Shown: one piece after another, positions 3,184 to 14,316 of the stretch
How positions within the stretch are numbered: the first letter of the stretch is position 1
How the letters are laid out: every line of letters begins with the position of its first letter
Program-made: the position numbers and the translations under genes
UHGV virus genome: UHGV-0230427
DNA from: a virus
Reading direction: 5' to 3' (one strand)
DNA: 24,355 nucleotides
Notes under the pieces: model-generated
What the model was told of the DNA's origin: nothing
What the model saw: only the letters and a program-made list of their open reading frames with translations
Databases searched by the model: none

Positions 3184-4083
3184 ATGACAAATACAGCAAA
3201 AATACTCAACTTCGGCAGAGGTAACTTTGCCGGACAGGAGCGTAATGTGGCAGATCTCGATGATGGTTACGCCAGACTATCAAATATGCTGCTTGAGGCT
3301 TATTCAGGCGCAGATCTGACCAAGCGACAGTTTAAAGTGCTGCTTGCCATTCTGCGTAAAACCTATGGGTGGAATAAACCAATGGACAGAATCACCGATT
3401 CTCAACTTAGCGAGATTACAAAGTTACCCGTCAAACGGTGCAATGAAGCCAAGTTAGAACTCGTCAGAATGAATATTATCAAGCAGCAAGGCGGCATGTT
3501 TGGACCAAATAAAAACATCTCAGAATGGTGTATCCCTCAAAACGAGGGAAAATCCCCTAAAACGAGGGATAAAACATCCCTCAAATTGGGGGATTGCTAT
3601 CCCTCAAAACAGGGGGACACAAAAGACACTATTACAAAAGAAAAAAGAAAAGATTATTCGTCCGAGAATTCTGGCGAATCCTCTGACCAGCCAGAAAACG
3701 ATCTTTCTGTGGTTAAACCGGATGCTGCAATTCAGAGCGGCAGCAAGTGGGGAACAGCAGAAGACCTGACCGCCGCAGAGTGGATGTTTGACATGGTGAA
3801 GACCATCGCGCCATCAGCCAGAAAACCGAATTTTGCTGGGTGGGCTAACGATATCCGCCTGATGCGTGAACGTGACGGACGTAACCACCGCGATATGTGT
3901 GTGCTTTTCCGCTGGGCCTGCCAGGACAACTTCTGGTCCGGTAACGTGCTGAGTCCGGCCAAACTCCGCGACAAGTGGACCCAGCTCGAAATCAACCGTA
4001 ACAAGCAACAGGCAGGCGTGACAGCCAGCAAACCAAAACTCGACCTGACAAACACTGACTGGATTTACGGGGTGGATTTATGA
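3184..4083 (+). CDS. O: Replication initiator protein O
   Basis: 299-aa protein near-identical over its length to recalled lambda O (MTNTAKILNFGRGNFAGQERNVADLDDGYARLSNMLLEAYSG...); AGGAG RBS; contains the ori iterons. Confidence 0.95.
   Translation: MTNTAKILNFGRGNFAGQERNVADLDDGYARLSNMLLEAYSGADLTKRQFKVLLAILRKTYGWNKPMDRITDSQLSEITKLPVKRCNEAKLELVRMNIIKQQGGMFGPNKNISEWCIPQNEGKSPKTRDKTSLKLGDCYPSKQGDTKDTITKEKRKDYSSENSGESSDQPENDLSVVKPDAAIQSGSKWGTAEDLTAAEWMFDMVKTIAPSARKPNFAGWANDIRLMRERDGRNHRDMCVLFRWACQDNFWSGNVLSPAKLRDKWTQLEINRNKQQAGVTASKPKLDLTNTDWIYGVDL
3531..3660 (+). repeat. ori-lambda: four direct iterons (3531-3618) followed by an AT-rich unwinding region (3619-3660), inside O
   Basis: Repeated units ATCCCTCAAAACGAGGGA / ATCCCCTAAAACGAGGGA / ATCCCTCAAATTGGGGGA / ATCCCTCAAAACAGGGGGA, each with internal dyad symmetry, then an A-rich tract (ACAAAAGAAAAAAGAAAAG). 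Confidence 0.85.
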
Positions 4084-5489: not shown

Positions 5490-5936
5490 ATGAAGCAAAT
5501 ATACATGCTTCGCAACGAAGCAATCAGAAACAACGCCATAGACGCAATACTCTCACTTCCGATCGACGACAAGTCACCTCACGAAGTCCACATTAAAGAA
5601 CCCAGGCGGAGCAATCCTCAAAACCGCCTTATGTGGGCGTTATTGCAGGACGTATCACGTCAGGTGCTTTGGCATGGAAAGAGACTTGCGCCGGAGGACT
5701 GGAAAGATCTGTTCACTGCCCTGTGGCTTAAGACCAAAAAACTGGAGCAACGAAGTGCGCCTGGTATCGACGGTGGCGTTGTCATGCTTGGCGTGCGTAC
5801 CAGCAAAATGCGAAAGGCCAGCATGACTGAGCTTATCGAAATCATGTTCTGGTTCGGCTCAGAGCGCAACGTGCGGTGGAGTGATGACTCCCGGCGAGAG
5901 TATGAATGGTCACAACGAAAAGGTAGGGCTGCATGA
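5490..5936 (+). CDS. ninB: NinB (Orf-family recombination mediator)
   Basis: 148-aa ORF with motifs recalled from lambda NinB (QNRLMWALLQDVSRQVLWHGKRL...WSDDSRREYEW); first gene of the nin region. Confidence 0.8.
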   Translation: MKQIYMLRNEAIRNNAIDAILSLPIDDKSPHEVHIKEPRRSNPQNRLMWALLQDVSRQVLWHGKRLAPEDWKDLFTALWLKTKKLEQRSAPGIDGGVVMLGVRTSKMRKASMTELIEIMFWFGSERNVRWSDDSRREYEWSQRKGRAA

Positions 5937-10966: not shown

Positions 10967-11002
10967 TCGGGCGATGAAAACCAAAAAAAACAGGAGCAAT
11001 AC

Positions 11003-11278
11003 ATGACTAAGCTTTATCACCGCATCTCAACTTTTCTCTCTGGTTGCTGGGCGTTTATCACGTCTATTTCGTTCGCCATCTTTAGTTTCGGTAGCACAAC
11101 GTGCTCGCTTAGTCGGGGTCTGTGGCGTGCTATTTCAGCACTAGCGCCGAAATTTTTACCTGAAAAGGCTGTTTGGCGAATTGTAGAGCGAATGTGTAGT
11201 GAGAGCGTTCGCGAGAAGATTAACGTATTTGGACGTCATCCTCGAAATACAGGCGCATTGTGCAGTCCGTTACTGTAG
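11003..11278 (+). CDS. Hypothetical small hydrophobic protein
   Basis: 91-aa ORF with AGGAG RBS (10992-10996) 6 nt before the ATG; hydrophobic N-terminal half; no homolog recognised. Confidence 0.45.
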   Translation: MTKLYHRISTFLSGCWAFITSISFAIFSFGSTTCSLSRGLWRAISALAPKFLPEKAVWRIVERMCSESVREKINVFGRHPRNTGALCSPLL

Positions 11279-11572
11279 TCATTACAAAGCCCATCTACGG
11301 GTGGGCTTGATAATGAAACCAGAATTTATTCTGGGAAACCAGTTACGGCAGTACAGCGAAACAACCCAAGCCAGAAAGTGGGGAAATAACACTGGCAGCC
11401 ACTGAAAGATGAACCTCCTGCCTTATGGCAAAAAAGATTCTTTGTGGTGGCGGACTGATGGAAAGACATCGGTTATTGCAGAGGCCATTCAATGAGTGGT
11501 CTCGACAATGGCTTATACCCTACACGGGATAACTTAACTGATATCCCTTTTAACGGATAAACGGAGCCAACA

Positions 11573-11815
11573 ATGGCAGAGATTATTCCCATGACTGAAG
11601 AACAGAAATTCCAGTTAGAGATTTACAAGCTGGTCATGAACCAGAACGCAGCCGCAGAAGAAGCATTTCAATTCATCGGCACTGACGAACTGAAGCTTGA
11701 GTTATTCAAAATTCACTTCCAGTCAGGCGGCGCTAATTCAGATATCACGATCCGCACATTCGAAGCAGTGCGTAAATCGAAGGAAGCGTTAGACCTGTTC
11801 ACCGCTGGAGTGTGA
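11573..11815 (+). CDS. Hypothetical protein (first gene of a small-ORF cassette upstream of terminase)
   Basis: 80-aa ORF with ACGGAG RBS; stop 1 nt before the next ORF's ATG; no homolog recognised. Confidence 0.6.
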   Translation: MAEIIPMTEEQKFQLEIYKLVMNQNAAAEEAFQFIGTDELKLELFKIHFQSGGANSDITIRTFEAVRKSKEALDLFTAGV

Positions 11816-11816
11816 T

Positions 11817-12206
11817 ATGGCTAAGGCCAAATGGCACAAACTCCCGGCGTTCACCATTCCGCTGTTTCAAAGTGCACACGTCTACCTCGCAACAACCAGA
11901 GAACAGTTTCAGCACGCTGATAAATTCCTTGGCGGCAGCGGGGATGAGAAGCCATTCAATCTTGGGCTTGCAAGCAACTATGAAAACACTGATACGGGTG
12001 AGCGATGCTATCTGATTGGAGTATTCGATCAGCAGATCGCTACGCTCGTTCATGAGTGCGCCCACGTCTGCTTTTACGTTTGCTCTGATGTCGGCGTGAC
12101 GACAAGCCCTGAAGATGCCAACGAGACGTACTGTTACATGCTGGACAGGATGGTTAATCACTTCCTGCCATTCATTCAGGAGAAACAAGATGTATCACTG
12201 GAATAA
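11817..12206 (+). CDS. Hypothetical protein with HExxH zinc-metallopeptidase-like motif (SprT/ImmA-like signature)
   Basis: 129-aa ORF with GGAG RBS; motif ATLVHECAHVCF contains a canonical HExxH embedded in a hydrophobic helix-like context; several further Cys/His/Asp/Glu residues downstream. Family not identified. Confidence 0.65.
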   Translation: MAKAKWHKLPAFTIPLFQSAHVYLATTREQFQHADKFLGGSGDEKPFNLGLASNYENTDTGERCYLIGVFDQQIATLVHECAHVCFYVCSDVGVTTSPEDANETYCYMLDRMVNHFLPFIQEKQDVSLE

Positions 12207-12384
12207 TCAATCCCCTTATTGCCAATGCCAACGCTGCCCGTGCTGCGGGAAGATTGTTAACCAATTTACTGGCAACAATTTCTTCAAGACTGGTTATGGA
12301 TATGGTGTTGCGGGTAGCATTAATTGCTCTGGGGCTGCTGCTGAAACGACATCAAACACAGGCAAGCAGGAAGGAGCTAAGTAA
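12190..12384 (+). CDS. Hypothetical small Cys-rich protein (possible zinc ribbon)
   Basis: 64-aa ORF with AGGAG RBS (12178-12182) 7 nt before the ATG at 12190; CQCQRCPCCGK cluster; overlaps the end of the upstream ORF by 17 nt. The ORF track's longer version (12115) lacks an RBS. Confidence 0.5.
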   Translation: MYHWNNQSPYCQCQRCPCCGKIVNQFTGNNFFKTGYGYGVAGSINCSGAAAETTSNTGKQEGAK

Positions 12385-12473
12385 TGGTAATCAAAGTTTG
12401 TTCAGGCTCTCAGGGCTTCGACAACCCATCCAAATTCCGCGATGAATGGGATAAGCAAGCAGAAGGGAAATAA
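12384..12473 (+). CDS. Possible 29-aa micro-ORF
   Basis: Hand-translated MVIKVCSGSQGFDNPSKFRDEWDKQAEGK; strong AGGAAGGAG RBS (12368-12376) 7 nt upstream; start overlaps the upstream stop (TAATG); ends 5 nt before the small terminase ATG. Too short for the ORF track. Confidence 0.3.
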   Translation: MVIKVCSGSQGFDNPSKFRDEWDKQAEGK

Positions 12474-12478
12474 TCAAT

Positions 12479-12904
12479 ATGGCGACTGAGAAAAAGAAAG
12501 GTGGTCGCCCCTCTGATTATATGCCGGAGGTGGCTAATGACATTTGCGCATTGCTTTCCTCCGGTGAGAGTCTGCGCAAAGTTTGCGAACGCCCAGGAAT
12601 GCCGAGCAAAACATCAGTTTTTCGCTGGCTGGCTGAACATCAGGAGTTTCGTGACCAGTACGCGAAGGCAACAGAGACTCGGGCCGACTCTATTTTCGAA
12701 GAGATATTCGAAATTGCTGACGACGTAATCCCTGATGCCGCCGAGGTGGCAAAGGCAAGACTTCGCGTTGATACCCGCAAATGGGCGCTGGCCAGAATGA
12801 ATCCCCGTAAGTATGGCGACAAGGTAACTAATGAGCTTGTCGGCAAAGACGGAGGCGCAATTCAGATTGAAACATCACCGATGAGCACTCTATTCGGAAA
12901 ATGA
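12479..12904 (+). CDS. Terminase small subunit (Sf6 gp1-like)
   Basis: 141-aa ORF immediately upstream of and overlapping the large terminase; N-terminal HTH-like region; resembles recalled Sf6-type TerS. Confidence 0.8.
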   Translation: MATEKKKGGRPSDYMPEVANDICALLSSGESLRKVCERPGMPSKTSVFRWLAEHQEFRDQYAKATETRADSIFEEIFEIADDVIPDAAEVAKARLRVDTRKWALARMNPRKYGDKVTNELVGKDGGAIQIETSPMSTLFGK

Positions 12905-14316
12905 CCTCGATTAATCCTATCTTTGAACCGTTCATTGAGGCGCATCGCTACAAAGTCGCCAAAGGCGGTCGAGGTAGCGGTAAGTCATGGGCAATTGCTA
13001 GGCTGCTTGTTGAAGCGGCGCGTCGGCAGCCTGTGCGTATTCTCTGCGCTCGTGAACTGCAAAACAGTATCAGCGATTCGGTAATCCGGTTGCTTGAAGA
13101 TACCATCGAGCGGGAAGGGTATTCGGCTGAGTTTGAAATTCAGCGTTCCATGATTCGTCATCTCGGAACGAATGCTGAGTTCATGTTCTACGGCATCAAA
13201 AACAACCCGACGAAGATTAAATCGCTCGAAGGCATTGATATCTGCTGGGTGGAAGAAGCGGAAGCGGTAACGAAGGAATCATGGGATATCCTGATACCAA
13301 CCATCCGCAAGCCGTTCTCTGAAATATGGGTGAGCTTTAACCCGAAGAACATACTCGACGATACCTATCAGCGATTCGTTGTAAATCCTCCCGATGATAT
13401 TTGTCTGCTGACGGTGAACTACACCGACAACCCGCACTTTCCTGAAGTTCTCCGTCTGGAGATGGAAGAGTGTAAACGCAGAAACCCGACACTGTATCGT
13501 CACATCTGGCTTGGTGAGCCAGTGAGCGCAAGTGATATGGCAATCATCAAACGTGAATGGCTTGAAGCTGCAACCGATGCGCACAAGAAACTCGGATGGA
13601 AAGCGAAAGGCGCGGTTGTTTCTGCACATGACCCGTCAGATACAGGGCCAGATGCTAAAGGTTACGCATCGCGTCACGGTTCGGTGGTTAAGCGCATTGC
13701 CGAAGGTCTGCTGATGGACATCAACGATGGTGCTGACTGGGCTACTTCGCTGGCAATTGAAGACGGCGCTGACCATTACCTGTGGGATGGTGATGGTGTT
13801 GGTGCCGGGCTACGCAGACAGACAACGGAAGCGTTCTCCGGCAAGAAAATCACCGCCACGATGTTCAAGGGCAGCGAATCGCCATTCGATGAAGATGCAC
13901 CGTATCAGGCCGGAGCATGGGCTGATGAAGTCGTACAGGGCGACAACGTTCGCACTATTGGCGATGTATTCCGCAATAAGCGAGCGCAATTCTATTACGC
14001 GCTGGCTGACAGGCTTTATCTGACATATCGGGCGGTTGTCCACGGTGAGTATGCAGACCCCGACGACATGCTGAGTTTCGACAAAGAAGCGATAGGCGAG
14101 AAGATGCTGGAGAAGCTGTTTGCAGAACTGACGCAGATTCAGCGCAAATTCAATAACAACGGGAAGCTGGAGCTTATGACTAAGGTCGAAATGAAGCAGA
14201 AGCTCGGTATTCCATCTCCTAACCTGGCTGATGCGCTGATGATGTGTATGCATTGCCCGGAGTCGGCTGCGCAACCCGACTATTCCAGTTACTCAATTCC
14301 TTGTGGTGTAGGTTGA
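12901..14316 (+). CDS. Terminase large subunit
   Basis: 471-aa ORF; Walker A-like motif (VAKGGRGSGKSWA) near the N-terminus, acidic nuclease-domain residues C-terminally; ATGA overlap with TerS. Confidence 0.95.
   Translation: MTSINPIFEPFIEAHRYKVAKGGRGSGKSWAIARLLVEAARRQPVRILCARELQNSISDSVIRLLEDTIEREGYSAEFEIQRSMIRHLGTNAEFMFYGIKNNPTKIKSLEGIDICWVEEAEAVTKESWDILIPTIRKPFSEIWVSFNPKNILDDTYQRFVVNPPDDICLLTVNYTDNPHFPEVLRLEMEECKRRNPTLYRHIWLGEPVSASDMAIIKREWLEAATDAHKKLGWKAKGAVVSAHDPSDTGPDAKGYASRHGSVVKRIAEGLLMDINDGADWATSLAIEDGADHYLWDGDGVGAGLRRQTTEAFSGKKITATMFKGSESPFDEDAPYQAGAWADEVVQGDNVRTIGDVFRNKRAQFYYALADRLYLTYRAVVHGEYADPDDMLSFDKEAIGEKMLEKLFAELTQIQRKFNNNGKLELMTKVEMKQKLGIPSPNLADALMMCMHCPESAAQPDYSSYSIPCGVG

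Follow-up and report, generated by a model that had tools for sequence, protein, structure and literature searches.

Two probable small late-operon genes, one encoding a candidate mobile microprotein, precede the small terminase gene of a P22-like Escherichia coli phage or prophage

Phage T4 encodes the anti-restriction protein Stp, which is only 26 amino acids (aa) long, and phage lambda encodes CIII, a helical FtsH inhibitor of 54 aa. Here we describe two small open reading frames (ORFs), specifying 64 and 29 aa, at positions 12190-12473 of a 24,355-nucleotide (nt) stretch of viral DNA (UHGV virus genome UHGV-0230427; 'the window' denotes this whole stretch), which covers the early-to-late region of a P22-like E. 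coli phage or prophage of the Lederbergvirus type. The 29-aa ORF, hereafter the micro-ORF, ends just before the gene for the small terminase (TerS). Its product is like Stp and CIII in size class and as a soluble charged peptide with a single predicted helix as its functional unit, and its gene, like theirs, is hidden by the thresholds applied to short ORFs. There is no sequence similarity, however, and whereas Stp and CIII are early genes with known targets, the micro-ORF belongs to the late operon, between lysis and packaging genes. Our best explanation of the whole, to which we assign a probability of roughly 60%, is that 12190-12473 holds two genuine small late-operon genes, read as part of a coupled chain, the second of which encodes a trans-acting helical microprotein. 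Phage small proteins are well recognised as a class (review PMC11323111), and the 29-aa ORF is a member of a new family of this recognised kind, not a new kind of system.

In position, the closest described genes are HK620 hkbN and P22 orf59c (an unrelated 59-aa gene) and P22 orf25, which occupy the same slot, a known hot spot between the DUF2560 gene (orf80 in P22, hkbM in HK620) and TerS. Like the two ORFs of the window, they are promoterless and coupled to their neighbours; hkbN and orf59c carry annotations; the micro-ORF and 64-aa ORF, unrelated to these genes in sequence, are missing from RefSeq. The window also shares with translationally coupled phage late pairs (ATGA or TAATG) the overlap, a 5-nt gap and an embedded weak downstream Shine-Dalgarno (SD) sequence, and its TerS gene overlaps that of the large terminase (TerL) in the same manner. 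Such coupling is generic operon architecture, however, and leaves the conservation of the micro-ORF peptide sequence unexplained. Like morons, the small-ORF cassette consists of extra genes between conserved late genes with a patchy distribution, and its synonymous divergence, which is below that of its flanks, can be counted as moron-like; assignment as a moron was rejected because the cassette (12190-12473) has no promoter or terminator of its own, relying instead on the late transcript and on coupling.

Among curated models, Pfam DUF2740 (PF10872), which likewise has no known function, is alone in touching the micro-ORF: the core DNPSKFR[DE]EWDKQ aligns locally and repeatably with profile positions 19-32 of 43. 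Membership was rejected: five variants scored 12.6-17.3 bits against a gathering cut-off of 27, with one third of the model matched. Apart from this sub-threshold match, the micro-ORF had no family in Pfam, PHROGs or NCBIfam, and sequence searches of the PDB were empty. In the literature searched, no paper mentions 'DUF2740' or the peptide motif, and the peptide was absent from the supplements of the Enterobacteriaceae small-ORF survey; it may be listed in the survey of small phage genes worldwide (Fremin et al. 2022).

The two ORFs and their SD sequences are arranged as follows.

12178-12183, plus strand: SD sequence of the 64-aa ORF, AGGAGA, 6 nt 5' of the ATG, identical in the relatives L012 and L016
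12190-12384, plus strand: 64-aa Cys-rich ORF, ATG at 12190, stop TAA at 12382-12384, product MYHWNNQSPYCQCQRCPCCGK...
12368-12376, plus strand: SD sequence of the micro-ORF, AGGAAGGAG, inside the last codons of the 64-aa ORF
12384-12473, plus strand: 29-aa micro-ORF, ATG at 12384, stop TAA at 12471-12473, product MVIKVCSGSQGFDNPSKFRDEWDKQAEGK

The ORFs, the SD sequences and the TAATG overlap, in which base 12384 is common to the 64-aa stop and the micro-ORF start, had all been proposed in a sequence-only reading of the window, and all are present. Upstream, the 64-aa ORF overlaps the 3' end of a 129-aa gene by 17 nt, with its SD inside the last 11 codons of that gene; downstream, a 5-nt gap separates the micro-ORF stop from the TerS start (12479). 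SD strength was taken as duplex energy with the 16S 3' end and ranked over 28 window genes. The micro-ORF (-8.0 kcal/mol) came 6th, the 64-aa ORF (-7.4 kcal/mol) 9th and TerS (-5.3 kcal/mol) 24th, so that the earlier description of the micro-ORF SD as one of the strongest in the window slightly overstates the case. The hexamer AAGGAG shows no excess in the window over shuffles, and the core motif of the micro-ORF occurs once against 0 expected. That default annotation would miss these ORFs was borne out: 12207-12478 is blank in RefSeq/PGAP in every prophage inspected, and the ~200 E. coli matches to the micro-ORF region (its last 70 base pairs, bp) have no annotated features.

Members of the micro-ORF family are 23-31 aa long and share the core NP-x-K-F-R-[DE]-E-W-D-K (in longer form GFDNPSKFR[DE]EWDKQ). 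In the common arrangement of the locus (E. coli 55989, phage APC_JM3.2 and most IMG/VR matches), a 79-bp 'spacer' lies between the DUF2560 gene and TerS; there an SD (GGAG in the last DUF2560 codons) and an ATG open a 23-codon ORF, MATQGFDNPSKFRDEWDKQAEGK, in the same frame as the 29-codon ORF of the window. Two unrelated 5' ends are thus known for the ORF. L012 provides an unbiased comparison because it was found through the 64-aa ORF; its micro-ORF reads MTIKNCSGADGFDNPSKFRDEWDKQTEGDK behind GGGAGGTGA, and all differences from the window within the core are synonymous (wobble).

The family members came from searches at protein level and with back-translated DNA, one protein-level query being a head-to-tail join of two natural variants. 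Because such searches favour conserved peptides, we also sampled Enterobacter-type loci via a downstream non-coding anchor. About half of the 88 unique loci in this sample carry the micro-ORF, and its 32 unique copies contain no frameshifts or stops; within the core, synonymous wobble alleles dominate, and the non-synonymous changes are K-to-R and a few singletons. For the 16-codon core of 14 divergent members (91 pairs), synonymous divergence (pS) averaged 0.72 (up to about 1.0) and non-synonymous divergence (pN) 0.15 (range 0.03-0.36), with third positions varying in 15 of the 16 codons and second positions in 6. Between distant members pS is about 0.7-1.0, at saturation, and pN about 0.03-0.28. 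Each copy has its own purine-rich SD, an ATG 4-10 codons 5' of the core and, 3-9 codons beyond the core W-D-K/x-x-T, a stop; start, SD and stop are kept although the flanks are unrelated. Four natural in-frame variants also keep the peptide frame. Natural variation includes an N-terminally truncated 23-aa form, K-to-R substitutions, an in-frame 4-codon duplication (P0007) and in-frame fusions to the Cys-rich ORF (P0003), Rz1 (P0017) and DUF2560 (P0024). The micro-ORF thus bears the signature of purifying selection, on which the unbiased sets agree, and comparative evidence of this kind appears to settle its coding status short of direct detection.

An AlphaFold prediction for a 32-aa family member places a helix at residues 13-25, covering PSKFREEWDKQTQ, with a core predicted local distance difference test score (pLDDT) of about 83. 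By inspection, F18 and W22 lie on one face of this helix, and K17/E21, R19/D23 and D20/K24 form i/i+4 pairs. The 29-aa product would accordingly be pictured as a soluble charged microprotein whose core, a D-N-P cap followed by S-K-F-R-D/E-E-W-D-K-Q, probably folds into a single short alpha-helix, its aromatic face formed by F and W, with salt bridges of the i/i+4 type.

The micro-ORF is present in about 4% of complete E. coli genomes, and its family in >150 viral contigs from Escherichia, Salmonella, Enterobacter, Cronobacter and Atlantibacter. The unit occupies at least five sites, all in the late region between Q and terminase:

5 nt before an Sf6-type or gp3-type TerS gene
At the start of a 110-aa or 172-aa gene, which it overlaps
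At the end of Rz1, likewise with an overlap, and with a hairpin/terminator module behind it
Ahead of the DUF2560 gene in HK544 and Emek, where it is a clean ~117-nt indel
In the interval from Q to holin in Cronobacter phage ES2 and in L235

There is one micro-ORF per complete phage genome, and one in the window. The ~117-nt insertion of HK544 and Emek holds an SD and a 23-codon micro-ORF paralog, MSAEGFNNPSKFRDEWDSSVKSK; its site corresponds to about 11470 in the window (between 11425 and 11570), where the window is empty. Occurrence at five or more late-operon sites in single copy and with its own SD makes a TerS-specific leader unlikely, and these properties, together with the constraint on its amino acids, are best fitted by a microprotein that acts in trans. 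SD and ORF together would form a single-copy mini-cassette placed at differing late-operon sites in different phages, and the most likely target of the peptide, late in infection, is a protein of the host or the phage. More specifically, and only tentatively, we propose that the 29-aa ORF is a mobile single-copy mini-gene of Escherichia, Salmonella, Enterobacter, Cronobacter and Atlantibacter lambdoid and P22-like phages whose product would be an effector of one helix (NP-x-K-F-R-E-E-W-D-K) and would bind, late in infection, some conserved machine of the host or phage, for instance a defence, lysis-timing or packaging factor.

Both ORFs are most likely carried on a polycistronic late mRNA with the lysis and packaging genes, since no internal promoter or terminator was found. 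Promoter-like matches in 11000-13000 were at chance level (2 against 2.4 expected) and terminator-like matches about 1.6 standard deviations above it (5 against 2.4 expected); 12190-12473 itself contains no terminator-like site, and its only promoter-like match is on the minus strand (12231-12203). The 17-nt overlap, the TAATG overlap and the 5-nt gap are those of a coupled operon, and translation would proceed as a chain from the 129-aa gene through the 64-aa and 29-aa ORFs to TerS.

The 64-aa ORF is far less widespread. A search of 5.8 billion proteins returned six clusters, and a profile query the same six; they include near-identical E. coli copies, one of which is named 'hypothetical protein' by GenBank submitters. 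Homologs of the same length are 63-97% identical. The diverged comparison set consisted of the window, L012 (a 63-aa homolog, 63% identical) and L016 (an Atlantibacter prophage with a further copy in the same gene order); the variant P0003 has the ORF fused in-frame to the micro-ORF. Across the three genomes the start, SD and length (63-64 aa) are kept and indels are in-frame. The pN/pS ratio of the 64-aa frame against L012 and L016 was 0.26-0.56, compared with 0.32-0.53 for the neighbouring DUF2560 gene, whereas the +1 frame, interrupted by a stop in L012, gave about 0.9 and the +2 frame, full of stops, >1.3. A competing frame at 12254-12445 (open, 63 aa, TTG start), which the sequence-only reading had weighed as an alternative, is not the one that is conserved: its pN/pS is about 0.9, L012 has a stop in it, and only two 1-bp-deletion variants read it. 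We also rejected a longer, 89-aa Cys-rich ORF starting at ATG 12115, since this upstream start is not conserved (TTG elsewhere, in L012 and L016) and ATG 12190 and its SD are. When synonymous and non-synonymous changes were compared in relatives, as had been suggested, both small frames proved to be kept under purifying selection and appear to be real conserved coding frames; for the 64-aa ORF this result rests on three diverged genomes, with two frameshifted variants known.

Constraint is unevenly distributed along the 64-aa protein. Its N-terminal 29 residues are conserved (NNxSPYCQCQRCPCCGKIxxQFTGN; pN 0.07 against pS 0.33), with five invariant cysteines, and the Gly/Ser/Thr-rich C-terminal half is variable and relaxed (pN 0.28 against pS 0.46). 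The cysteines form a single 9-residue run, C11-x-C13-x2-C16-x-C18-C19. A zinc ribbon requires two CxxC-type knuckles with a spacer between them and beta-hairpins around one Zn, and a zinc ribbon or zinc finger is not supported on this ground: the five cysteines lie in one cluster, not in two separated CxxC knuckles. Zinc-ribbon models in Pfam and NCBIfam gave no match, the protein has no relative in Pfam, NCBIfam, PHROG or PDB (PDB matches were not significant, E 0.12 and 2.4), and AlphaFold, working from 4 sequences, returned a mean pLDDT of 39 and a predicted template modelling score of 0.16. The earlier suggestion of a zinc ribbon is thus not upheld; the five-cysteine cluster is possibly metal-binding.

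The main rival for the 64-aa ORF is that it is a young or decaying ORFan with no selected function, translated, if at all, through the coupled operon. Its confinement to six clusters, profile query included, the two 1-bp frameshift variants of independent origin, the relaxed C-terminal half, the failure of AlphaFold to give it a fold and the success of the 129-aa gene without it all speak for this idea. We nevertheless regard it as unlikely, because three genomes, in which the flanking genes show a pS of 0.65-0.84, retain the frame with its length, start and SD, the N-terminal 29 codons are constrained (pN 0.07 against pS 0.33), the five cysteines are invariant, and the other frames over the same bases behave neutrally. 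The preferred explanation, in which the ORF is a gene, leaves it a rare, lineage-restricted accessory gene, an ORFan that matters less than the micro-ORF.

The relation of the micro-ORF to TerS involves the following features.

12409-12478, plus strand: 70-bp block comprising micro-ORF codons 9-29 and TAATCAAT, ~97% identical in ~200 complete E. coli genomes
12470-12520, plus strand: local hairpin enclosing the micro-ORF stop and the TerS AUG (12479-12481), free energy -19.3 kcal/mol, z -3.4
12479-12904, plus strand: gene for the Sf6-type TerS (Pfam PF20901, E 1e-44), with a weak SD, AAGG at -16 to -13

The TerS SD (12463-12466) lies inside the last micro-ORF codons. The stems of the hairpin pair 12470-12476 with 12514-12520 and 12481-12487 with 12503-12509, and the structure recurs in E. 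coli 55989 (-22.3 kcal/mol, z -3.7). The weak SD and the hairpin at the TerS start make termination-reinitiation coupling plausible in this phage, as read from the sequence, and TerS synthesis is probably in part coupled to micro-ORF translation: ribosomes terminating on the micro-ORF would be delivered 5 nt from the TerS start. The hairpin is absent where a gp3-type TerS follows, so that coupling is not conserved across the family.

An explanation built on this coupling alone would make the micro-ORF a cis-acting upstream ORF, whose translation opens the hairpin, hands ribosomes to TerS and sets its dose, the amino acids being irrelevant. The 5-nt gap, the weak TerS SD within the last micro-ORF codons, the sequestration of the TerS AUG and the identity of the junction TAATCAATATG before two TerS families would all be expected on this account. 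The account seems improbable to us, since the peptide core is conserved where synonymous sites are saturated, copies occur before unrelated genes or without any coupled downstream gene (TAG followed by the hairpin/terminator module), and the hairpin is missing with gp3-type TerS. Regulation of packaging, which the sequence-only reading had offered as one role, therefore survives in part: coupling to TerS is plausible in this phage, with weak support, whereas the same family also stands after Rz1, before DUF2560, between Q and holin and before unrelated genes, and so is not tied to terminase. The other role offered there, that of small anti-defence proteins, stands as a guess. Under the trans-acting explanation that we favour, TerS coupling is a by-product of the position of the micro-ORF in this phage.

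The TerS stop and TerL start also overlap (ATGA at 12901-12904), and the TerL SD is the weakest of the 28 genes (-2.6 kcal/mol); judged from these signals, the whole packaging block appears to be reliant on translational coupling.

In TnaC and SecM, a conserved core lies near the stop, and the micro-ORF likewise has a conserved aromatic and charged core 4-18 residues from its stop. It could on that basis be a regulatory nascent (arrest or leader) peptide, whose signal-dependent stalling controls downstream translation or, in Enterobacter-type phages, termination; many Enterobacter-type copies are indeed followed by a hairpin right after the stop and an intrinsic terminator 60-90 nt later. Such peptides are recognised by a fixed distance from the tunnel-contacting residues to the stall site and by a constant downstream gene or terminator. 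Here the core-to-stop distance varies, the tail after W-D-K-x-T being 2 to 8 residues long with variable last residues (AEGK, TQGK, TENK, TEGDK, TEGGKQ, KPASA...), and the downstream partner is inconsistent; we accordingly rejected an attenuator of the TnaC or SecM type. A leader peptide-terminator attenuator was also rejected, because the hairpin/terminator module is independent, following Rz, Rz1 and many other genes that lack a micro-ORF, and hence does not form a unit with it. A nascent-peptide role is in our view very improbable.

Equally remote is the proposal that the stretch is non-coding, with the 70-bp block serving as a recombination linker or as a DNA or RNA signal before terminase and the frames fortuitous: the ~97% identity of the block in ~200 genomes, its position exactly at the mosaic junction of unrelated TerS genes and the missing PGAP gene call would suit it, and against it distant copies differ mostly at wobble positions while keeping start, SD and stop, the two ORFs contain no significant RNA structure, Rfam match or promoter or terminator signal, and the unit also occurs far from any terminase. 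A structured non-coding RNA was rejected as a candidate because folding was at the level of shuffled controls (z +0.18 for 12355-12520 and +0.81 for 12150-12400) and the window had no Rfam match; only the hairpin at the TerS start stands out.

Several observations weigh against the explanation that we prefer. Most members of the micro-ORF family were ascertained at the protein level, which favours conserved peptides, and the unbiased comparisons rest on few substitutions. The hairpin at TerS is lost when the micro-ORF precedes a gp3-type TerS, and no family, structure or literature match points to a function. The 64-aa ORF, found in 6 protein clusters only, has at least two independent 1-bp frameshifted variants (strain A10 and P0006); these, with its loose C-terminal half and its pLDDT of 39, suggest that it may be dispensable.

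If the micro-ORF is the gene that it appears to be, then a strongly conserved peptide gene goes unannotated by RefSeq in ~4% of complete E. coli genomes and in many Enterobacteriaceae prophages, and the 'intergenic spacer' before the small terminase in many P22-like prophages is coding. The peptide, which no curated family covers, offers phage microprotein biology a concrete and easily testable case: it is short enough for synthesis, its core motif is invariant, and its natural variants define the positions that can be changed. For phage genetics, how far TerS is expressed in these phages may depend on whether an upstream micro-gene is translated.

The genes upstream of the two ORFs are these.

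11573-11815: DUF2560 protein gene, the equivalent of P22 orf80 and HK620 hkbM
11817-12206, plus strand: 129-aa HExxH (VHECAH) gene, matching PHROG 1365 (E 3e-37), 'hypothetical protein' in PGAP

The TerL, portal, scaffold and coat genes lie downstream of TerS. The flanks are 87-97% identical to HK620, Kapi1, Sf6 and CUS-3, and 11817-12408 is covered by no isolated phage; 11800-12500 is present in sixteen complete E. coli genomes at 98.7-100% identity. Strains with the exact locus include E. coli LSC52, 100% identical over 11800-12483, and MLI106K1. Relative to the common arrangement, the window has ~590 extra bases, from 11817 to about 12408, which hold the 129-aa gene, the 64-aa ORF and the new 5' end of the micro-ORF.

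The HExxH motif of the 129-aa protein lies inside a Cys/His-rich stretch, VHECAHVCFYVC. The gene is strongly constrained (pN/pS 0.07 against L012); PHROG 1365 is a family of unknown function, and matches to SprT-like and HExxH-hydroxylase motifs were weak only. In other prophages it stands beside TerS or a 'putative metallopeptidase' without the Cys-rich ORF, and its homology there stops at about 12171, which indicates that 12172-12408 is a separate piece with its own SD. An obligatory partnership between the HExxH gene and the Cys-rich ORF, of the kind seen for ribosomally synthesised and post-translationally modified peptides and hinted at by a weak TIGR04267 match, was rejected because the HExxH gene is found without the ORF; the TIGR04267 match is confined to the HExxH motif.

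The 70-bp block abuts two unrelated TerS families, the mosaic junction being the TerS start codon, and in phage 720R6 TerS begins directly at the same GGAGCATAAACATG. Prophages of E. coli A10 (L003) and E. coli CUVM3 (L005) have a truncated Rz/lysis gene fused to window-like sequence from 12144 or 12336; the accessory region from the lysis cassette to the micro-ORF is deleted, and the micro-ORF and TerS are intact. Among the window, L012 and L016, the small-ORF module (12172-12478) has a pS of 0.18-0.41, compared with 0.64-0.84 in the flanking DUF2560 and HExxH genes, and this low synonymous divergence suggests recent horizontal exchange of the module.

Further observations concern related sequences. 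A 22-aa homolog of the annotated P22 'orf25' lies at 11492-11560 of the window. In the called 70-aa protein P0021 (Logan/ENA contigs), residues 1-17 of the 23-aa micro-ORF are followed by the C-terminal portion of an ejection protein resembling P22 gp7 (PF25688), which reflects either a rearranged prophage or an assembly chimera. A conserved non-coding module at about 5735-5830 of an Enterobacter wuhouensis prophage (L017) recurs in 115 IMG/VR contigs; it consists of ATAGARCCTCATCCCTGAGGY, then TCTGACAC.GTCTCTCCTCTGG.CTTTAA, then an intrinsic terminator, follows many genes (Rz, Rz1, the micro-ORF and others) and has no Rfam match. The same prophage carries, at 3648-3882 and just upstream of the lysis cassette, an isrJ-like small RNA (RF01393, 68.7 bits) and two tRNA genes.

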